A DNA stretch of 64,000 nucleotides from Patescibacteria group bacterium (GCA_038328135.1 JBBQLR010000002.1:12936-76935), one strand, 5' to 3'; shown: positions 25,278 to 34,059, counted from the stretch's first letter. Program-made: numbers and translations. Notes: generated from the sequence alone by a model not told the origin.

Positions 25278-25901
25278 ATGCTCTCTGTCGGAAAACTTCT
25301 GAAGGATGCTCGTGAGCGAAAAAAGCTGTCTCTTCGTGACGTGGAAAAGAGCATAAAAGTACGTGAACAATTCATTCGTGCACTTGAGGAAGATAGATGG
25401 GATTTGTTTACATCCCGCATATACGTTACTGGGATACTAAAAAATTATTCTCGTTTTTTGGGACTGGATGAGCGTAAGATACTTGCATTTTTCAGACGCG
25501 AATACGAACGAATAGAGGAAATAAAATTCAAAGAAAAAGTTTCCACTTCCTACCTGTCATCTGATTCAAAAAAAACGATTATCGTGGGATTTGTATTTGT
25601 ATGTATTCTTCTCGCTGCATATTTTTCCTATCAGTTATTCCAATATTTTAGACCTCCTTCTATCCAAATTTTGTCCCCCAATACTACGACTTTTAAAAGA
25701 GAACTAGTAGTAAAAGTAGTAGGAAAAACGGAAAAGGAAGCGGTCGTAACTATCATGGGTGAACGGATATATCAGAATAAAGAGGGAATATTTGAATACA
25801 CCATGCCACTTAAACAAAAAGAGAATAATCTTTCAATAGAGGTTGTGGGAGCTAATGGAAAGACTACTATATTGAAAAAAGTATTTATGCGGACGCAATA
25901 A
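25278..25901 (+). CDS. RodZ-like HTH membrane protein
   Basis: N-terminal Xre-type HTH (LGKLLKDARERKKLSLRDVEKSIKV), one TM, and an extracytoplasmic beta-rich domain. Confidence 0.6.
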   Translation: MLSVGKLLKDARERKKLSLRDVEKSIKVREQFIRALEEDRWDLFTSRIYVTGILKNYSRFLGLDERKILAFFRREYERIEEIKFKEKVSTSYLSSDSKKTIIVGFVFVCILLAAYFSYQLFQYFRPPSIQILSPNTTTFKRELVVKVVGKTEKEAVVTIMGERIYQNKEGIFEYTMPLKQKENNLSIEVVGANGKTTILKKVFMRTQ

Positions 25902-27165
25902 ATTTCTGAATTTCACGTATTGAAGTGAGGTGAGTATGGTCAAGTGGGTTCATGCCCAGTCGTTTTGCTTCTTTTGAAGTCTTTACTCCTAAATAACCTG
26001 ATCGGATTTCGCCTAGAAGGCCCACTTCTCCAATAAAAACTTGATTTGCTTTAACCGTTTTTGAAAGTACCGAAGAATAGAGGGCTGCGATTATGCCAAC
26101 ATCTGCGAGCGGGGAAGTGATTCTAATACCCCCGACAACATTGAAATAGATGTCATAACTATCGAGTTTAAGATTGAGGTATTTTTTGGCTATCGCGATG
26201 AGTAATTGGACACGATTAAAGTCTATTCCTTTCGCAACACGGCGGGGCATTGAGAGAGATGTTGGAACCGCAAGCGCTTGAACTTCAAGGAACATTGGTC
26301 TATTTCCCTCACAAATGCCCACAATAGCTTTACCCACTTCTTTTTTCGATGAATCCGCGAGAAGCGCAGTTGCCGAGTTTACTTCATTCAATCCATTTTC
26401 CTTCATTTCAAATACGCCAATCTCGTCGATCGATCCAAATCTATTTTTTGAAGATCGAAGAATCCGAAACGGGGAAGCAGCATCCCCTTCAAGGGATAAC
26501 ACACAATCGACCATATGCTCGAGTGTCTTTGGCCCGGCTAAGTCCCCATCCTTTGTTACATGACCAATAACAAGAAATGGAATCCCGCTTTTTTTAGCAA
26601 ATGGAATCACGCGATTCATTACTTCTTTAATTTGGTTTATGCTTCCTGGTGGTGTTTCAACGTCATCAGTGTACAGCGTTTGGATGGAGTCAAGAATAAC
26701 AAATTGCGCGGTTTTTTGTGTTTCTATTCCAGATAGAATTTTATCAATATTTGCCTCATCGGAAAATAATATATGTGCTATATCTGCTTTCAACCGCTCA
26801 GCTCTATGCTGGACTTGGTCAAGCGATTCTTCGCCTGATACGTAAATTGCAAGACTTTTTTTAATGATTTGAAGAAGGAGTGTGGATTTGCCGATACCCG
26901 GCTCTCCCGAAAGGAGAACCACTTCTCCACGAGTAAGGCCTCCACCTAGCACTCGATCAAATTCAAACATGCCCATCGATTGTCTACTAGACTTTGATTT
27001 ATCGATTTTCTTCAGTTGAGAGAATTGAGTAGGAGTGGCTTTTCTTCTCGTAATTTGTGTCTCTTCCTTTTTTTGTTGAAGTGTGTTCCACTCTCCACAG
27101 CCGGGACACTTTCCAATCCAGGAAGCTGCGCCGTATTGACAAGAAGAACATATAAAAAAAGCCAT
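25885..27165 (-). CDS. radA: DNA repair protein RadA
   Basis: N-terminal C4 zinc finger (CSSC...CPGC), Walker A GEPGIGKST, KNRFG motif, Lon-like C-terminal domain. Confidence 0.92.
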   Translation of the reverse strand: MAFFICSSCQYGAASWIGKCPGCGEWNTLQQKKEETQITRRKATPTQFSQLKKIDKSKSSRQSMGMFEFDRVLGGGLTRGEVVLLSGEPGIGKSTLLLQIIKKSLAIYVSGEESLDQVQHRAERLKADIAHILFSDEANIDKILSGIETQKTAQFVILDSIQTLYTDDVETPPGSINQIKEVMNRVIPFAKKSGIPFLVIGHVTKDGDLAGPKTLEHMVDCVLSLEGDAASPFRILRSSKNRFGSIDEIGVFEMKENGLNEVNSATALLADSSKKEVGKAIVGICEGNRPMFLEVQALAVPTSLSMPRRVAKGIDFNRVQLLIAIAKKYLNLKLDSYDIYFNVVGGIRITSPLADVGIIAALYSSVLSKTVKANQVFIGEVGLLGEIRSGYLGVKTSKEAKRLGMNPLDHTHLTSIREIQKFIASA

Positions 27166-27167
27166 AG

Positions 27168-28862
27168 TTACATTTTTTGAACTGTTTGTATTCCGAGCAA
27201 ATTTAGACCATGTTTGACAATAGATGCCACTGCCTTTGTAATGGTAAGACGTATATATTTTTGGTTAGGCTCCGCCTTTAGTATAGGATTCTTTTGGTAG
27301 AACAGGTTATATTCTTTTGATAATTCATAGAGATAACTTGCAATGATGTTTGGCGATAATGTCGATGCTGCTTTATACACTTTATCGGTATATTGGTAGA
27401 TAAGTCGCAACATAAGTTTTTCATCAGGAGAAATGTCTTTTGGATACTGTCCCGAATTTTCTGTTTCTTTTGCTAAGATACTTTGTGTGCGGACATATGT
27501 GTAGAGGATATAGGGAGCGGAATTTCCCTCAAGGGAAATACTCTCATCTATATCAAACGCAATTTGGGTATTTGTTGAATTTTTAAGAAATGAATACTTC
27601 ACTGCTGCAACAGCAAGAGTTTCAACGATATCATTCGCATTCTCAAATTTTTCCAAAATCTTTTTCTTGATTTCATCCAGTAACCAAGATGCTTCAATTA
27701 CATTACCCGTTCTGGACGACATCTTACCCTCCTTCAACTTTACCCATTCATAGGCAAGGTGAAATTGTTTATTCCCGAATTTTTCTTTATCCAATAATTC
27801 TTCGACTTTAAACGTTATTTTAAAGAAGCTGGTTTGTTCTGGTGTAACGACATGGATGCATTTATCGAGTTTTCCAAAATCGCTAAATTCTTTTGCAGCA
27901 AGCCCTAATTCTTTTCCTTCATACGTGGGGTACCCAAGGCTGTTTATAAATACTCTTGTATCCAAGCCATACTGTTCTCCTTTAAAGACAACAGCTCCCT
28001 CGCTTTTTTCAAGGATTCCTTTTTCAAGAAGTTTTTTTGAGGTTTTTAATCCCTGTTCATGTACTTCACTTTCAAAATAACAACGATCAAAGTGGGAATA
28101 AACACGTTTATATATTTCTTCGTAATACTGTAAGCTCCAAGCTCTTGTAGTTGTCCAGAGCTCTGTTATTTCAGGAGAGTCTTTTTCATAAATATGCTTA
28201 TTTATGACAATTATTTCCGCTTTTGAAGCTTCATCTGATTCGTAGGCCGTCTGACCTTCTGAATATCCCCTTCCAAGCAATTTTATTTTTTCTTGCAGCG
28301 AAAGAGCTTCAAATAAGGATTTTCCATCTTTTTCAATCATTTTTTTTATTCCCCAGAGACATTTTGCGATATGAAGGCCAACATCTCCCTGATAATTAGT
28401 CCGGACAACGGTATTTCCAACGGCGGAAAGCATTCTCACGACTGATTCACCAGTAGAAATATTTCGTAAATGGCCGATATGGAACAATTTATGAGTATTG
28501 GGATGTGCAAACTCTACCATCGCTTTTTTTTCACTACCATAATAAAAAGTTTGAATAGCAAATATATTATTTACAGCCTTTTCAAGAGGTGTGATTAGCT
28601 CTTTTTTAGATAGCCAAATATTGATAAATCCAGGCTTAAGAACCTGAATCGATTCAATATACTCATTCGGCTTTATTTGAGATTTAATTTTTTCTGCTAG
28701 TTCAAGAGGGTTTTTCTTTAATTGTTTTGCTAGTATGAGGGCAATATTCGTCGAGAAATCCCCAAACTGAAGTTGGGGAATACTGATAGGTACTTCACCT
28801 GAAAAATCGATTTGGTTTTTTAGGATAGCTTTTGTAACTAGTTCTTTGATTTTCAATTCCAT
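27168..28862 (-). CDS. argS: arginine--tRNA ligase
   Basis: HIGH (HIGHLRN) and MSSRTG (KMSKS-type) class I motifs; anticodon-binding DALR domain length. Confidence 0.92.
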   Translation of the reverse strand: MELKIKELVTKAILKNQIDFSGEVPISIPQLQFGDFSTNIALILAKQLKKNPLELAEKIKSQIKPNEYIESIQVLKPGFINIWLSKKELITPLEKAVNNIFAIQTFYYGSEKKAMVEFAHPNTHKLFHIGHLRNISTGESVVRMLSAVGNTVVRTNYQGDVGLHIAKCLWGIKKMIEKDGKSLFEALSLQEKIKLLGRGYSEGQTAYESDEASKAEIIVINKHIYEKDSPEITELWTTTRAWSLQYYEEIYKRVYSHFDRCYFESEVHEQGLKTSKKLLEKGILEKSEGAVVFKGEQYGLDTRVFINSLGYPTYEGKELGLAAKEFSDFGKLDKCIHVVTPEQTSFFKITFKVEELLDKEKFGNKQFHLAYEWVKLKEGKMSSRTGNVIEASWLLDEIKKKILEKFENANDIVETLAVAAVKYSFLKNSTNTQIAFDIDESISLEGNSAPYILYTYVRTQSILAKETENSGQYPKDISPDEKLMLRLIYQYTDKVYKAASTLSPNIIASYLYELSKEYNLFYQKNPILKAEPNQKYIRLTITKAVASIVKHGLNLLGIQTVQKM

Positions 28863-28877
28863 ATTTTGTATATCATA

Positions 28878-29930
28878 TCACAATTCGGTGATACATTTTT
28901 TTATAATCTCGCATAATAACTGTAAGTCTATAACGGCAACCTGTTCTTCTGTAGTATGAGGTTTTTTGATTCCATCAGTCAGATTAACGGTTTCTATTCC
29001 CTGTGCATTTAAAACATTTGCATCGCTAATCCCTGAATGCATAAAAAATGTAGTATTTATGTTCAATTTCGTAAATACCTCGGAAATAGATTCGATAAAT
29101 AGAGCATCTTTCTCATGGGTATACCCAGCACAGAATCCGGATAGTTTAAAATCTACTCCAGCTCCAGTTTTTTTCGCCTGAGTATGTGCAATTGTTTTTA
29201 TATTCTGAATATGTTTATTAAATAATAGCTCACTATAGCTTCTTACTTCACCCTGAATTTGGATGAGATTTGGTACTATATTTATTCCCGCTCCTCCTTT
29301 TATAAGTCCAATATTTACAGTCGTTTCTCCTGCATCGAGATTGCCAACTGGAATTTGTACCATGGCTTCGAAAGCGGGCATGAAGGCATTGATACCCGTA
29401 TCCGGTTTGGAGGAATGGGTTGATATTCCGGTAAATTGGAGGTCGAAATTGGTGATGAAAGGAGATCTAAGCACGATACCGCCCAACGGGTTTGCACTGT
29501 CGAATATCAATGATTTCTTTGATTGAATTAAATCAAATTGAAAAAATTCAACACCACCACCAGTTTCCTCTTTCACTGTAAAAAGAAGTTCAATCGCACG
29601 ATTGTTTGTGGTTGTTTCAAGCGCGCACAAAAGGGAGGCTATGAAAGCTTTATTATCCGCCCCCAAAATTGTTTTCCCATCAGATGTAATTACTCCGTCT
29701 TTAACGATTGGATTTATATTCTCTCCCGGTTGGACCGTGTCCATATGTGCACAAAGTAATAGAGGTTCGCCATTCGCATTATTTTTAGCTAAAATATTTC
29801 CAACAGTATCGATTTGAAATGTAAAATCATGTGTTGTTAACCAATTTTGCAAATAAACGCTCATAAGTCCTTCTTTTCCTGAAGGACTGGAAATTTTGAC
29901 GAGTTCGATGAATTGTGATGTGATATCCAT
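28878..29930 (-). CDS. M20 family metallo-hydrolase (ArgE/PepT-like deacylase or peptidase)
   Basis: HMDTV, GADNKA and KEETGGG metal/catalytic motifs. Specificity cannot be read from the sequence. Confidence 0.75.
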   Translation of the reverse strand: MDITSQFIELVKISSPSGKEGLMSVYLQNWLTTHDFTFQIDTVGNILAKNNANGEPLLLCAHMDTVQPGENINPIVKDGVITSDGKTILGADNKAFIASLLCALETTTNNRAIELLFTVKEETGGGVEFFQFDLIQSKKSLIFDSANPLGGIVLRSPFITNFDLQFTGISTHSSKPDTGINAFMPAFEAMVQIPVGNLDAGETTVNIGLIKGGAGINIVPNLIQIQGEVRSYSELLFNKHIQNIKTIAHTQAKKTGAGVDFKLSGFCAGYTHEKDALFIESISEVFTKLNINTTFFMHSGISDANVLNAQGIETVNLTDGIKKPHTTEEQVAVIDLQLLCEIIKKCITEL

Positions 29931-29945
29931 ATAGTTAATAGTAAC

Positions 29946-30584
29946 TTATGGCGAATATAAAACGGGTTCATAAATGAAAATGGTTGATTCTGGCTCCCAG
30001 CCATCAAGGACATCAATACCCAGCTCAGCCAATGCTTTTTCTCTTTCCACAATTCTCCATTGGAGTCGTTTAAACACATGAAGAGAAGCCACATTGTCAA
30101 TTGTCACTACTGCTATTCTTTTAATTCCTGGGTACATTGAATTGCTGTCTTCAACCATTTGAGTTACTAATGCTCCCCCTAATCCTCTTCCTTGTTCTGC
30201 AGTATCCACAACGAGACTTCCGATTTCAACGCAGACAGGAACGGTATTTCCATTATAAATATCATCAAAATGTTCAGGCACTTCCGCCATTGCCCCTTTT
30301 TTTATTTCACACATATCATTTGACCCGACTACCCATGGAGACATCTTCACATAACCCGTGAGGGTATCCATATGATTTGTGGCAACAAGCGCATGTCCGG
30401 TTTCAATCGCGAATTGGAGGTTTTGAATAGGTGGTTGGAATGTATGTTCTCCACCCAATCTGAATAATAATTCAGAAGCCTGGGTTGCCCATCCTAATTT
30501 TGTATTGGGGTTTTGTGAATTCATCGATTCATGACTGAGAACCGAAATATGATGAGCAAAACCCTTATTATCAATCTCCGCCAT
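29946..30584 (-). CDS. GNAT-fold acetyltransferase-like protein (212 aa)
   Basis: Acetyl-CoA motif A: EQGRGLGGALV. Paralogous in layout to the 200-aa protein at 32056..32658. Confidence 0.6.
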   Translation of the reverse strand: MAEIDNKGFAHHISVLSHESMNSQNPNTKLGWATQASELLFRLGGEHTFQPPIQNLQFAIETGHALVATNHMDTLTGYVKMSPWVVGSNDMCEIKKGAMAEVPEHFDDIYNGNTVPVCVEIGSLVVDTAEQGRGLGGALVTQMVEDSNSMYPGIKRIAVVTIDNVASLHVFKRLQWRIVEREKALAELGIDVLDGWEPESTIFIYEPVLYSP

Positions 30585-30599
30585 AGGTATATTATTGAA

Positions 30600-32090
30600 T
30601 TATTTCTCGATACATTTTGTAACTTCTATAAGTAAATCTTGTTCTGCCTTAAGAAAATTATTCTCCTGTGTTTTATTCCATGATTCCAATCCTTTTAATT
30701 CTTTTTTCAATTTTTTATTGATTTTTAGAACATGTGTTGGTCCGGCAGTACCATCATATTGATATTGTTCTAATGCGTTATTTACGTCGAAAACCTCTTC
30801 GATAAACTTCTGCTCAATAGAAATAACACTTCCAGTAAGCTGTTTGACGGCAATTTCAACTACTTGATTATCAATCAAAGAGATATCACCCTTGACGATC
30901 CCTACAGATTTTCCGACAATCTTATGTGCTGTTCTGAAGGGGATTTTATATTTTTTTACCAGTTCATCAGCCAATTTTGTTGGGAGGGTAGATACGACCC
31001 CTGCTTTCATTACTTCCGGATTAGCCTTTAACTTGGATATCATATCTCCAACTATCAAAACGGTATTTACCGATTCTTCTAGAGACGATAGTATAGCTAT
31101 TTTACTTTCAGCACTATCTCTATTGTAACCGGATGGAGTCCCTTTCATAGCGATAAGAGCGTGATTTAGATTGGCAATTAATTTTGCACTTTTACCCTTT
31201 ATTTTTTCTGCAATATCGGGGTTCATTTTCTGTGGCATTATAGATGATCCTGTTGTAAATTCTTCTGAGATTGCAATATAATTTAATTCAGGAAGACTCC
31301 AAATGATAATATCTTCCATCATTCTCGATAAAATAGTCAGAAATAATGTGAGTTGACTTATAATTGCAGCATCTTCAATTCCTCTGTTATTTATTGCACT
31401 CAATGCATTGTTGAATGGTTTGGAAAATCCAAGTAAATTTGCTGTCATCTCGGTATTAATTTTCCAATTCACCCCATATGAAGCTCCAGCACCAAGAGGA
31501 CAGGAATCATAGACTTCACATGTGTATATCAATAGCTTATGAATACTGAGAATCTGATCTAAATATGATTGCCACCAAAAACCGAAAGAGGAGGGCATTG
31601 CCCCTCTCATATGGGTAAATCCAGGCATAACCGTATATGAGTATTTCTCCGCTTTTTCCCACAGAATAGTTTCAAAGTGTATTAATCCATTAAAAAAATC
31701 GAACAAATATTTTTTTGTGATTAATTTTTGATCAGTAACTGTTTGGTCATTTCTACTTCTTCCAATATGGAACCATTCGGCGTCATCACCGATAAGCTTT
31801 GTCAATTTACTTTCAACATTTTCATGAACGTCACCAATCTGTGGGTCGACTATTTGACCACTCTTGGCTATTGGTAAAAGATTTAACAGACCTTGCAGTA
31901 TTTTTTTAGTGCTTTTTTTTGGGACAATTCCGCACTTCGCCAACATTACATTATGAGCCATTGTTTCCAATAGATAATAGGACGCAATTTTGTTTTCAAT
32001 TACTGTCATTGCTGGGTCCATAATAAATTGATCTGTTTTTTGAGAGGGCCCTTGGTTATAAATCCCCCCATAGATTTTGTTGTTTGACAT
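30600..32090 (-). CDS. argH: argininosuccinate lyase
   Basis: GRSRNDQTVTD and GSSIMPQKMNPD fumarate-lyase/ArgH signatures. Confidence 0.9.
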   Translation of the reverse strand: MSNNKIYGGIYNQGPSQKTDQFIMDPAMTVIENKIASYYLLETMAHNVMLAKCGIVPKKSTKKILQGLLNLLPIAKSGQIVDPQIGDVHENVESKLTKLIGDDAEWFHIGRSRNDQTVTDQKLITKKYLFDFFNGLIHFETILWEKAEKYSYTVMPGFTHMRGAMPSSFGFWWQSYLDQILSIHKLLIYTCEVYDSCPLGAGASYGVNWKINTEMTANLLGFSKPFNNALSAINNRGIEDAAIISQLTLFLTILSRMMEDIIIWSLPELNYIAISEEFTTGSSIMPQKMNPDIAEKIKGKSAKLIANLNHALIAMKGTPSGYNRDSAESKIAILSSLEESVNTVLIVGDMISKLKANPEVMKAGVVSTLPTKLADELVKKYKIPFRTAHKIVGKSVGIVKGDISLIDNQVVEIAVKQLTGSVISIEQKFIEEVFDVNNALEQYQYDGTAGPTHVLKINKKLKKELKGLESWNKTQENNFLKAEQDLLIEVTKCIEK

Positions 32091-32658
32091 AGTCTTGGTA
32101 TAGTGAACTGGTAATCATTCCCTTCATATCAATAATAGTTTCAGGATGATCCGTCTCACCCTCCTGAGCCGCCAACATATTAGGAACGTAAGATGGGCGT
32201 TTTATAATAGTTCCACCATAAGACAATAATATACGTAGAGGCATGGGATTATCAGAGGAACATACCGCAAATAGATCGGCTTGAGGATCAAATTTGTCGT
32301 GGTATGCCTTAATCGCCCCAACTAACGCTAAAGTACCATAGCCCTTACCTCCACTAGAAGAAAACCAAGTGGAGAATTCGTACCCCAGAACATCACCCTC
32401 CGTTGCCACATAGGGGTACAATTTTGCAAAAGCCATCAATTGGCTATCGACCATTACTGCAGAGGCTAAGCCTTCTTTCATAAACTCTATGAGTTTTTCT
32501 TTCGTTTGTTTTACCATGTGACCAGACGCAACATGAGAGGCTAGTATGGGTAACGCTTGATTAGCTATAAGTTGTTTATGCGCATGGGGAACCGTCTGTA
32601 TAGCTTTTCCAGCATATATAGTCGTACACATCTTAACAATTTTTTGTTTGTTTTTCAT
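32056..32658 (-). CDS. GNAT-like protein (200 aa) between argG and argH
   Basis: Start at MKNKQK forms an ATGA overlap with the argG stop. SSGGKGYGTLALVGAI resembles GNAT motif A. The track ORF from 32751 is an over-extension inside argG. Confidence 0.5.
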   Translation of the reverse strand: MKNKQKIVKMCTTIYAGKAIQTVPHAHKQLIANQALPILASHVASGHMVKQTKEKLIEFMKEGLASAVMVDSQLMAFAKLYPYVATEGDVLGYEFSTWFSSSGGKGYGTLALVGAIKAYHDKFDPQADLFAVCSSDNPMPLRILLSYGGTIIKRPSYVPNMLAAQEGETDHPETIIDMKGMITSSLYQDYVKQQNLWGDL

Positions 32659-33869
32659 TGTAGACTCCCTCCTTTTGTTGATTTTTTTGCTGCGATTACT
32701 GACTGCAATCCATAGAGCTTTACAAATCCATTCACCTCTTCTTTTGTCCATGATTTACTTTGAGCATACTGAGCCACTTTTGGATCGATAAGGGACTGAG
32801 GAGTCAATACTGATACAGGTAGTGCATTGCCATATTCTAGTTTCATCAGTACTTTCCCCGTGACTTTCTTTTGTTGTGAAGTAATAAATGCCTTCAGATC
32901 CGTAACAAATGGATTATAGAATTTTCCATTATAAATATATTCAGTCAGTTCTTTGTCGATAGACTCACCAAAATATATCTGTGGTTTTGCCAAGACATAT
33001 TGTTCGAGGGCTTTATGGGCTTTTATGAGGAATAAGAGGCCAGGAGCTTCAAAGACAAGATGGCCTTTAATACCAATCATGCAGTCACCGGTATAATATT
33101 CTTTACCAAAGCCGTATTTCCCAACCTCGGTATTGAGTATATCTAGAATGGTCCATCCCTCCATGGATTTTCCATTTAGTTTGTAAGGAACCCCTTCCTG
33201 GAAATCAATTTCAAAATACTCTTGTTTATCTGTTTTTTCACCAGTTACCCAGCTAAACATATTCTGTTCCGGTTCACAGTTTTCGTCAATTTCAGAACCA
33301 GAATAGGTAATACCGGCAAGACTCACATTAATACTATATTTTTTATGAGTTGCACTCACGTTATACCCTTTTTTAGCTAGATATTGCTTTTCTTCTTCTC
33401 TATTACCGCCCATGTCCTTAATCGGTTCAATTATTTCAATATCCGGAGCAAGAATTTTTGCCGTGATATTGAAGCGAATTTGATCGTTGCCCATACCTGT
33501 ATTGCCATTAGCGATGGCTTGTGCTTTTTCCTTCTTGGCAATTTCAACGCATTTTTCAACGATATGATAACGCTGAGATGAGACTATATTTGGATAGAAG
33601 CCTTCATACAAGCCATTGGATTTAATAATCCAAGACAGCATCGAATCAAAGTAGTATTTTTTTGAGTCGATTTGATAATGTTTTATTGCCCCCAATTGCT
33701 TTGATTTTTGCGCTATCTCCTCTTTTTCTGCATGGGAAAAGCCACCAGAATCCACTGTTACAGTAATAACCTCAAATCCTTTATCCATAAGATAAGGGAC
33801 GCAGAAACTCGTATCTAGGCCGCCTGAAAATGCTAAAATGACTTTTTTTTGATCTTTATTTTTTTTCAT
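32655..33869 (-). CDS. argG: argininosuccinate synthase (divergent)
   Basis: AFSGGLDTS PP-loop, NGNTGMGNDQIRF (canonical xGxTGKGNDQVRF), and C-terminal synthetase domain. Confidence 0.85.
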   Translation of the reverse strand: MKKNKDQKKVILAFSGGLDTSFCVPYLMDKGFEVITVTVDSGGFSHAEKEEIAQKSKQLGAIKHYQIDSKKYYFDSMLSWIIKSNGLYEGFYPNIVSSQRYHIVEKCVEIAKKEKAQAIANGNTGMGNDQIRFNITAKILAPDIEIIEPIKDMGGNREEEKQYLAKKGYNVSATHKKYSINVSLAGITYSGSEIDENCEPEQNMFSWVTGEKTDKQEYFEIDFQEGVPYKLNGKSMEGWTILDILNTEVGKYGFGKEYYTGDCMIGIKGHLVFEAPGLLFLIKAHKALEQYVLAKPQIYFGESIDKELTEYIYNGKFYNPFVTDLKAFITSQQKKVTGKVLMKLEYGNALPVSVLTPQSLIDPKVAQYAQSKSWTKEEVNGFVKLYGLQSVIAAKKSTKGGSLQ

Positions 33870-33892
33870 AAGTGTATAAATGTTGTTAACCC

Positions 33893-33920
33893 AAAAAAAA
33901 TCCCCCGTAAATTGCGGGGG
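33893..33920 (-). terminator. intrinsic terminator 23 nt upstream of the argG start (attenuator terminator)
   Basis: Minus strand CCCCCG / loop CAAUUUA / CGGGGG, then A plus U8 (plus 33893-33900). Confidence 0.7.
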
Positions 33921-33974
33921 TGAGTAGTAGTGAAAGGGTTATTTATTTTGCAGAACAATACCTACTACTCTCCC
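33918..33974 (-). promoter_or_regulatory. putative antiterminator helix competing with the argG leader terminator
   Basis: GGGAGAGUAGUAG (plus 33962-33974) pairs with CUACUACUCACCC (plus 33918-33930): 12 bp with one A.A mismatch. The final CCC belongs to the terminator 5' arm. Confidence 0.55.
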
Positions 33975-34023
33975 TGGAGCTTCGCCTTAAGCAAGTGAAT
34001 TGGGATGTACTAATAGATATCAT
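33943..34023 (-). CDS. putative argG leader peptide, 26 codons with 4 Arg codons
   Basis: MISISTSQFTCLRRSSRESSRYCSAK. The ATG lies 7 nt after a -10 box (leaderless geometry). Arg codons at 13, 14, 17 and 21. The ORF overlaps the antiterminator 5' strand. Confidence 0.45.
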   Translation of the reverse strand: MISISTSQFTCLRRSSRESSRYCSAK

Positions 34024-34030
34024 AAATGTC

Positions 34031-34059
34031 ATTTTACAGAATAGTCCTATAATTGTCAA
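34031..34059 (-). promoter_or_regulatory. sigma-70-type promoter of the argG leader
   Basis: Minus strand TTGACA (34059-34054), 17 nt, TAAAAT (34036-34031). Confidence 0.65.

Follow-up and report, generated by a model that had tools for sequence, protein, structure and literature searches.

What do two small acyltransferase-like genes do within a bacterial arginine unit that encodes the last two steps of the pathway, and is accompanied by no detectable early genes? The question is raised by a 64-kb stretch of DNA from a Patescibacteria group bacterium (GCA_038328135.1, JBBQLR010000002.1:12936-76935; hereafter the window), in which genes for two GNAT proteins, one of 200 aa (GNAT1) and one of 212 aa (GNAT2), lie among argG, argH, a gene for an M20 metallo-hydrolase and argS. 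All coordinates are positions in this window. Our analysis indicates that the unit is very probably the operon by which an uncultured bacterium, apparently of the candidate phyla radiation (CPR), supplies itself with arginine, made of two modules under one arginine-codon leader, and that both GNATs belong to a lineage-restricted family of acyl-CoA transferases dedicated to an arginine gene context. As for what the family does, we tentatively put forward an acyl-protected late arginine pathway, in which GNAT1, ArgG and ArgH would handle N-acyl intermediates and the M20 hydrolase would perform the deacylation.

The ORF call on the window placed seven closely spaced genes on the minus strand, from 33869 down to 25885 (Table 1), and confirmed every member of the argG-to-radA unit that an earlier description made from the DNA alone (hereafter the sequence-only reading) had outlined. 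Both overlaps reported there are also present: the start of GNAT1 (32658) and the argG stop share an ATGA, preceded by an AGGAGG ribosome-binding site, and GNAT1 overlaps argH by 35 nt. The remaining spacers in the unit measure 15, 15, 15 and 2 nt. As the overlapping form of GNAT1 and argH recurs in two independent assemblies (P0002 and P0003), it is not an assembly error. A one-base deletion in the G6 run inside the overlap recreates the fusion found in relatives, so fusion and fission of GNAT1 and ArgH are one indel apart; slippage at this run is conceivable. The terminal radA is probably a syntenic housekeeping gene with no function in the arginine unit.

Table 1. Coordinates of the arginine unit, its leader region and a taxonomic marker in the window.
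Feature	Position	Strand	Observation
Promoter-like site	34031..34059	-	TTGACA, 17 nt, TAAAAT; 11/12 matches, best of region
Leader mini-ORF	33943..34023	-	MISISTSQFTCLRRSSRESSRYCSAK*, 26 codons; tandem Arg codons AGG CGA and two more AGG
Covariance model R1 match	34023..33894		93.8 bits; no other match in the window
Intrinsic-terminator-like hairpin	33892..33920	-	CCCCCG/CGGGGG and T8, between leader ORF and argG
argG, variant type	32655..33869	-	TIGR00032, 319.9 bits (cutoff 268.2)
GNAT1, 200 aa	32056..32658	-	below every Pfam cutoff, weak Acetyltransf_3 match only (E 0.004); no NCBIfam match
G6 run in GNAT1/argH overlap	32064..32069	-	loss of one G gives a single 685-aa GNAT1::ArgH ORF
argH	30600..32090	-	TIGR00838, 326 bits (cutoff 279.5)
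GNAT2, 212 aa	29946..30584	-	above Pfam cutoffs for Acetyltransf_1 and FR47
M20 metallo-hydrolase	28878..29930	-	Peptidase_M20 and M20_dimer domains
argS, arginyl-tRNA synthetase	27168..28862	-	exceeds NCBIfam cutoff; final arginine-related gene of the unit
radA	25885..27165	-	exceeds NCBIfam cutoff; same direction, 2 nt 3' of argS
Ribosomal protein genes S5 and L15	60669..61594		overlap by 4 nt, no L30 between

Comparison with relatives, for which about 10 kb on each side of the query gene were in view, resolves the unit into two conserved modules, argG-GNAT1-argH (module A) and GNAT2-M20-argS with or without radA (module B). The neighbourhood conservation on which the sequence-only reading depended was thus found in dozens of relatives, GNAT::ArgH fusions among them, but it applies to these modules and not to the five-gene arrangement itself. 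Homologue look-up recovered argG, GNAT1 and argH together in L001, L003 and L004, and GNAT2-M20-argS-radA, with argG and argH absent within 10 kb, in L005-L010 and L019; in all relatives examined GNAT2 lies directly upstream of the M20 gene. A metagenome scan with a clade-specific ArgG motif gave 272 relatives; 80 loci were retained from these and annotated by HMMs made from the earlier loci. The commonest order in the lineage is argG-GNAT-argH-M20-argF-argS-radA, preceded by PEGA and EamA genes in the opposite direction. Both GNAT paralogues are present in the window and in L003, L004 and L033, all four without argF. In L025 and L026, the argF gene between M20 and argS is split into ORFs of 81 and 142 aa, which suggests that part of the lineage is in the process of losing argF.

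Among 83 variant-type argG genes with downstream DNA, the next gene is a free GNAT in 33 and a GNAT::ArgH fusion in nine. These natural fusions (666-704 aa, nine loci) all carry the GNAT at the N-terminus of ArgH; in L012, for example, a 666-aa in-frame GNAT1::ArgH is followed by M20, a canonical ornithine transcarbamylase (OTC; TIGR00658, 385 bits) and argS. Adjacency of argG and GNAT persists down to about 25% GNAT identity: L014 has the order argG-GNAT-argH-M20-argS with GNAT1 relatives of about 25-30% identity, L018 has argG-GNAT, and L015-L017 have argG, a GNAT with an added MGS domain, an amidohydrolase, a radical SAM protein and DUF6282. The MGS domain, which resembles the allosteric C-terminus of CarB, marks a sister branch of GNATs (L015:8001-8972, L016, L045-L047 and L017:8001-12233), after which an 8-oxoguanine-deaminase-like amidohydrolase, the radical SAM protein and DUF6282 stand in place of argH and M20.

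Pairwise comparison does not relate the two GNATs (BLASTP of GNAT1 against GNAT2, E 1.8). Their family profiles, however, are colinear across 142 columns (hhalign 92%, E 6.5e-7), with AGHMVxQT paired to GGEHTFQPP, GFAKLYPY to GFVKMTPW, and the two motif-A-like segments quoted in the sequence-only reading to one another. The family is small: GNAT1 has eight and GNAT2 15 matches among 5.8 billion clusters, only 58 proteins at E<=1e-3 came out of 1.84 billion representatives searched exhaustively by profile, and a scan of 185,579 species genomes with GNAT1 motifs gave one spurious 25-residue match. It also contains intermediates (P0027, P0064, P0073 and P0077), each of which scores on both GNAT family HMMs. 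Given the colinear profiles, the small family and these intermediates, the two proteins are, by sequence comparison, paralogues that have diverged inside a single small GNAT family without annotation, as had been proposed from their common layout.

The AlphaFold models of GNAT1 and GNAT2 (pLDDT 81.5 and 90.4) are predicted with confidence to have the GNAT alpha/beta fold. Foldseek returned 312 PDB matches for GNAT1 and 456 for GNAT2 at E<=1e-3, and the top 50 listed for each are all GNATs. The best fold matches of GNAT1 are generic (phosphinothricin acetyltransferase, EctA, YncA and RimJ-like enzymes), with the N-acetylglutamate synthase (NAGS) of Neisseria (2r8v) at rank 24; those of GNAT2 are arylalkylamine, agmatine and polyamine acetyltransferases. 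Motif A, which binds the CoA pyrophosphate (Q/R-x-x-G-x-G/A), is retained throughout the family and is canonical in GNAT2 (QGRGLG). GNAT1 has GGKGYG, in which G-x-G is retained and the first residue is neither Q nor R; other members of the family have QGQGIG, NSGYG or RNGFG, and two relatives of GNAT1 have R at the first G. Across the superfamily the sole invariant residue is a Glu on strand beta-4 (E94 in GNAT1), and one motif-A Gly and one Asn after beta-5 are nearly invariant. Aminoacyl-tRNA-dependent chemistry of the Fem or L/F-transferase type was considered for GNAT2 and rejected, as its CoA-binding motif is canonical and all its listed fold matches are acyl-CoA GNATs.

A kinship with the short NAGS of Mycobacterium or with the ArgH(A) domain, which the sequence-only reading had suggested as a comparison, did not emerge. 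Against the corresponding models (NF005921 PRK07922, NF008964 PRK12308 and NF005840), GNAT1 gave no match, as with NCBIfam in general, and GNAT2 reached E 0.012, 0.06 and 1e-4, in the motif-A region only and far under the cutoffs. When the profiles of GNAT1, GNAT2 and the superfamily were run against PDB sequences, the matches were weak, generic GNATs and none was a NAGS.

The unit is preceded by a leader (Table 1) that is shared across the lineage. The same assembly of promoter, mini-ORF, a pair of alternative helices and either one terminator or two occurs in L001, L003, L005, L008, L010, L012, L018-L044 and L051, always before the first gene of the operon, including before GNAT2 where GNAT2 leads (L003, L005, L008, L010, L019 and L033). 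A covariance model (R1) built from 13 leaders and searched in 1.03 Mb found 35 matches, one per lineage operon and always in operon orientation; it had no match in the 47 loci of L052-L099, among them the GNAT-bearing L053. The typical leader peptide of relatives is MLKVLFISNSSSRRLFGEGSIFMA*. The ORF is open in all 17 distinct sequences, with AGG at codon 14 in 17/17 and CGA, AGA or CGT at codon 15 in 16/17. In the GC-richer L005 the peptide retains LRR, and a compensatory replacement turns GAGUAGUAG/CUACUACUC in helix 2:3 into GAGCGGUAG/CUACCGCUC; helices 1:2 and 2:3 are both conserved. The promoter-like site lies 7 nt upstream of the mini-ORF start, and the TATAAT boxes of relatives 5-10 nt before it, a spacing that implies a leaderless or nearly leaderless transcript. 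Searches of the window and the leader against Rfam, at gathering and E-value thresholds, gave no match, and a tRNA search of the window found none.

On balance we favour the view that this leader is an arginine-sensing leader-peptide attenuator, of which we know no earlier example with arginine codons. By the regulatory logic that we infer, it would probably raise expression when charged tRNA-Arg is scarce. Some observations speak against attenuation: variation in the leader ORF is spread over codon positions as 31/28/29, with no third-position bias, and helix 2:3 overlaps the terminator stem by just 3-4 nt. Because of this short reach, folds with simulated ribosome positions showed no clean switch between terminator and antiterminator, and minimum-free-energy folds retain the terminator. 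RNAalifold detected weak covariation, as expected from leader sequences that are close to one another. Whatever its mechanism, the shared leader places GNAT1, GNAT2 and M20 under common regulation with argG, argH and argS.

Three further observations touch the leader region. In L003, L004 and L033 a degenerate second copy (e.g. MKNIFFTISALRRHSI*) stands before argG, between M20 and argG; its position inside GNAT2-M20-argG-GNAT1-argH suggests that the two modules came together from units that had each been under their own control. In L053, a more distant relative, the sequence GGTGGTACC some 100 nt before argG resembles a conserved T-box motif, and judging from this resemblance L053 may use a T-box instead of a leader peptide. 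A gene for an EamA/DMT-family transporter lies divergently beside the leader in L012, L020, L023, L026, L027, L032, L034, L036, L037, L041 and L051, and not in the window; its product may transport citrulline, ornithine or some acylated amino acid.

What the GNATs might act on is suggested by ArgG, whose residues are given here in human ASS1 numbering. In the human enzyme citrulline is contacted by Y87, N123, R127, S189, E191, E270 and Y282 and aspartate by T119, N123 and D124, and the E191Q and E270Q variants are inactive (PMC13289927). The ArgG of the window retains the ATP motif SGGLDTS and the aspartate motifs, with Y87, T119, N123, D124, R127 and S/T189, and carries the substitutions K121M, E191S, E270G and Y282F at four positions where the canonical bacterial ArgGs in the PDB retain K121, E191, E270 and Y282. 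It is a member of the ArgG family by TIGR00032, but its canonical set of citrulline contacts is incomplete. The nine GNAT-linked ArgGs first compared (the window and eight others) all retain Y87, T/S119, D124, R127 and S/T189, and eight retain N123 (S in L012); K121M/S, E191S and E270G are found in 9/9 and Y282F in 7/9 (I in L017, Y in L018). The same pattern was found in all 80 scanned loci, where residue 121 is M, A or Q and residue 191 is S or G, and the best NCBIfam model of these variants, PRK04527, scores 262-501 bits, under its cutoff of 603. The deviant NGNTGMGNDQ motif singled out by the sequence-only reading is accordingly real and common to all GNAT-linked ArgGs.

From the chemistry and from known structures, we believe E191 and E270 to hold the alpha-ammonium group of citrulline. 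If they do, their joint loss would open an uncharged pocket for an N-acyl group. ArgH departs from the canonical form as well: the window protein has the catalytic motifs SRNDQ, TH and GSSIMPQKMNP, with THMRGAMP in place of the canonical THLQ(R/K)AQP, and in all lineages with the variant ArgG this segment reads THxR(R/S/G)AMP. Literature searches found nothing on the substrate-contact residues of ASL, no report of an ArgG tested on acetylcitrulline and no description of this cluster in Patescibacteria.

The transcarbamylases encoded near the variant ArgGs divide along the same line. Classified by score against seed sequences in the 42 transcarbamylase-bearing loci, they are of the acyl-ornithine type in 27 loci without GNAT and in none with GNAT; canonical OTC (TIGR00658, 385-389 bits) occurs in 12 loci with GNAT and in none without, and a third type (L024, L032 and L034) in three with GNAT and none without. 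The loci without GNAT belong to other lineages and are arginine clusters of the ordinary kind, such as L056 (acetylornithine carbamoyltransferase at 487 bits on NF003384, then argG-argE-argB(A)-argC...argH) and L073 (argG-X-argC-argD-argF'-argB-argH, with argF' at 447 bits on NF003384). Judged by these classifications, the variant ArgG is in our sample always accompanied either by a predicted N-acyl-citrulline-making enzyme or by a plain OTC together with a GNAT adjacent to argG.

Around this split we note that the variant ArgG occurs with acetyl- or succinyl-ornithine transcarbamylases (27/27) in the GNAT-less loci L052 and L054-L098, which raises the question of whether these ArgGs, too, take N-acyl-citrulline. 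The third-type enzymes are second transcarbamylases encoded right after the canonical OTC (L024:14542-15576, L032:13289-14284 and L034:14532-15527), and score about 230-245 bits on the OTC, acetylornithine-transcarbamylase and YgeW models, under the cutoff in each case. Protein X of L073 (L073:5682-6800, about 345 aa), which is encoded directly after argG there and in 21 other loci, has a faint DUF1611 match and probably corresponds to the alternative N-succinylglutamate synthase that GapMind 2026 predicts.

Early arginine genes do not accompany the unit, as the sequence-only reading had noted for the window: neither argB, argC, argD, argF nor any other transcarbamylase gene was detectable in the 64 kb, a result obtained by search, and for argJ the absence was judged only by eye and from a Pfam scan of the large unassigned ORFs, which are housekeeping or unknown. 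Seeds for argB, argC and argD likewise had no match in the window and about 50 lineage loci, and matched 15-27 loci outside the lineage. As for the host, adjacency of the S5 and L15 genes without L30 is a reported hallmark of CPR bacteria. This arrangement in the window (Table 1), together with the sediment source, fits a CPR/Patescibacteria organism, an uncultured and probably ultra-small sediment bacterium.

The M20 protein is not ArgE-like by sequence, contrary to how it had first been described: it scores 66 bits on the ArgE model TIGR01892 (cutoff 297.7), its best model is the PepT-like TIGR01883 (211.9 bits, under the cutoff of 274.25), and the closest solved proteins are 3gb0 ('Peptidase T') and 3rza ('tripeptidase'). 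By sequence this is the kind of outcome, a grouping with di- or tripeptidases, that the sequence-only reading had named as a refutation. It shares the M20 catalytic and dimerisation domains with both ArgE (M20A) and PepT-like proteins (M20B), and shares with ArgE its genomic position, 3' of argH and 5' of argF or argS, the place of the ArgE-type deacylase in other clusters. It is from this position, by analogy, that we argue a putative deacylase role.

These observations can be joined into the pathway that we tentatively prefer. An ArgG without E191, E270 and Y282 would be unable to hold the free alpha-amino group of citrulline, and would instead work on N-alpha-acyl-citrulline. Citrulline would be imported, or supplied by the plain OTC in relatives that carry one, and GNAT1 would acylate it to N-acyl-citrulline; ArgG would convert this to N-acyl-argininosuccinate, from which ArgH would release fumarate to give N-acyl-arginine; the M20 hydrolase would strip the acyl group, and the resulting arginine would pass to the arginyl-tRNA synthetase. 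We infer every substrate assignment in this scheme. GNAT2 may also be an acyltransferase, one that uses another acceptor. Under this pathway the acyl group cannot come from acyl-ornithine, hence the dedicated GNAT beside ArgG, and no other reading jointly explains the ArgG substitutions, the transcarbamylase split, the position and fusion of the GNAT, and the absence of argB, argC and argD. An undescribed GNAT role at the last two steps had been offered by the sequence-only reading as its second option, and is now specifically backed by the active-site variant of ArgG and by its association with transcarbamylase type. A wider version of the proposal, possible in our view but short of probable, is that the whole variant ArgG clade and its co-inherited ArgH use N-alpha-acyl substrates, loaded in the CPR-like lineage by the GNAT and unloaded by the PepT-like M20 under an arginine-codon attenuator, in which case the late steps assigned to Xanthomonas and Bacteroides would be revised.

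Several points weigh against acyl protection. In the accepted pathway of organisms with an acetyl- or succinyl-ornithine transcarbamylase, deacylation takes place at N-acyl-citrulline, ArgE there being named an N-acylcitrulline hydrolase (GapMind 2026, 10.1101/2024.10.14.618325), and ArgG then uses free citrulline; should this be true of their variant ArgG, an acylated substrate does not follow from the substitutions. That E191 and E270 hold the alpha-amino group is a belief drawn from chemistry and known structures. GNAT2 has no explained role in the scheme, and GNAT2-M20-argS occurs without argG or argH nearby. One acyl-CoA would be spent per arginine without obvious gain, and we know of no precedent for N-acyl-argininosuccinate. 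Since the GNAT loci form one lineage, the association of OTC with GNAT comes close to a single evolutionary event, and with about 10 kb viewed on each side in relatives, argB, argC and argD could lie elsewhere.

In the main rival reading, which we rate only a little below acyl protection, ArgG and ArgH act on free citrulline and argininosuccinate, GNAT1 (perhaps with GNAT2) is a new short N-acetyl- or N-succinyl-glutamate synthase, the PepT-like M20 stands in for ArgE as a non-orthologous N-acetylornithine deacetylase, and argB, argC and argD are encoded elsewhere. It has precedents in the GNAT-argH glutamate acetylases ArgH(A) of marine gamma-proteobacteria and argGH(A) of Thermus, and in Deinococcus, where several putative acetyltransferase genes lie beside argG and argH, one of them retrieved by arg(A) homology (PMC1382215). 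The fusion of a GNAT to a CarB-allosteric-like MGS domain in the sister clade would fit a regulated committed step, the order M20-then-OTC would fit a route from N-acetylornithine through ornithine to citrulline, and in L073-like loci, thought to be Bacteroidetes-like, the DUF1611-like gene after the variant argG is probably GapMind's alternative N-succinylglutamate synthase. The top fold matches act on glutamate analogues (phosphinothricin and methionine-sulfoximine acetyltransferases), and NAGS 2r8v ranks 24th. Several points speak against a new glutamate acylase: argB, argC and argD, missing from the window and about 50 lineage loci, are clustered with the same ArgG type elsewhere, CPR genomes generally lack them, neither the short-NAGS models nor the PDB sequence searches gave specific similarity to a NAGS, and the loss of E191, E270 and Y282 would be left unexplained.

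It is less probable still that the part of the GNATs and M20 lies in supplying or protecting arginine and that they leave the intermediates of the pathway alone. M20 could, for instance, be a PepT-like peptidase freeing arginine from peptides or N-acetyl-amino acids under starvation, and the GNATs could acetylate arginine analogues in detoxification, ArgRS, ArgG or ArgH in regulation, or another small amine. Such roles would suit an M20 nearest to PepT-like proteins, a GNAT2-M20-argS module that persists under the arginine leader where argG and argH are not local, and fold matches to amino-acid-analogue resistance, polyamine and agmatine acetyltransferases. Strict argG-GNAT adjacency, translational coupling and repeated in-frame fusion to ArgH point instead to the argG and argH steps, and the same M20 orthologue occupies the position of the ArgE-type deacylase of other lineages. 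That the GNAT genes lie here by chance or through synteny alone, without a functional tie to arginine, is very improbable. Close relatives do keep the gene order around the locus for 20 kb or more, which means that part of the linkage is plain inheritance, but the adjacency outlasts module rearrangement (L003, L004 and L033 against the window), deep divergence (L014, L017 and L018) and fusion events, and the genes share leader control.

If ArgG and ArgH do act on acylated substrates, the result would be a new pathway. An unannotated GNAT family would gain a function and a setting, the retention of argG and argH without early genes in reduced CPR-type genomes would be explained, and the accepted late steps of the Xanthomonas- and Bacteroides-type pathways would have to be revised. 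ArgG is assumed in textbooks always to take free citrulline; the transcarbamylase split around one ArgG variant makes this assumption testable. Independently, the arginine-codon leader is a compact candidate regulatory element that also stands over an arginyl-tRNA synthetase.

Among known systems, the leader is closest to the trp, his, leu and thr attenuators, with which it shares a short ORF with tandem codons for the end product, alternative helices and a U-run terminator before the first gene. It differs from them in its arginine codons, its leaderless-looking ORF, the short antiterminator overlap and the lack of an Rfam family, and in that the operon also encodes the cognate tRNA synthetase. 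The unit itself resembles the ArgH(A) and short-NAGS systems (Moritella, Thermus argGH(A) and Mycobacterium Rv2747; Xu, Glansdorff and Labedan 2006, PMC1382215) in having a single-domain GNAT linked or fused to argininosuccinate lyase in an arginine operon. In contrast to these, the GNAT here is N-terminal to ArgH and encoded between argG and argH, bears no specific resemblance that we could detect to the models for short NAGS or ArgH(A), lies in loci where argB, argC, argD and argJ were not detected, and is joined by a second paralogue that pairs with an M20 hydrolase. With the acyl-ornithine pathways of Xanthomonas and Bacteroides the unit shares the same variant ArgG clade (PRK04527; K121M/A, E191S/G, E270G, Y282F) and a deacylase, here putative, encoded beside argG or argH; unlike in those pathways, the transcarbamylase carried by relatives of the window is a canonical OTC, the window itself has none, and the candidate deacylase is PepT-like and not of the ArgE type. 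GNATs beside or fused to argH, and N-acylated arginine pathways, are thus already known. What is new is the GNAT family with its N-terminal fusion to ArgH, its paralogue paired with a PepT-like hydrolase, the arginine-codon leader, and a connection between variation in the ArgG active site and the origin of the acyl group.

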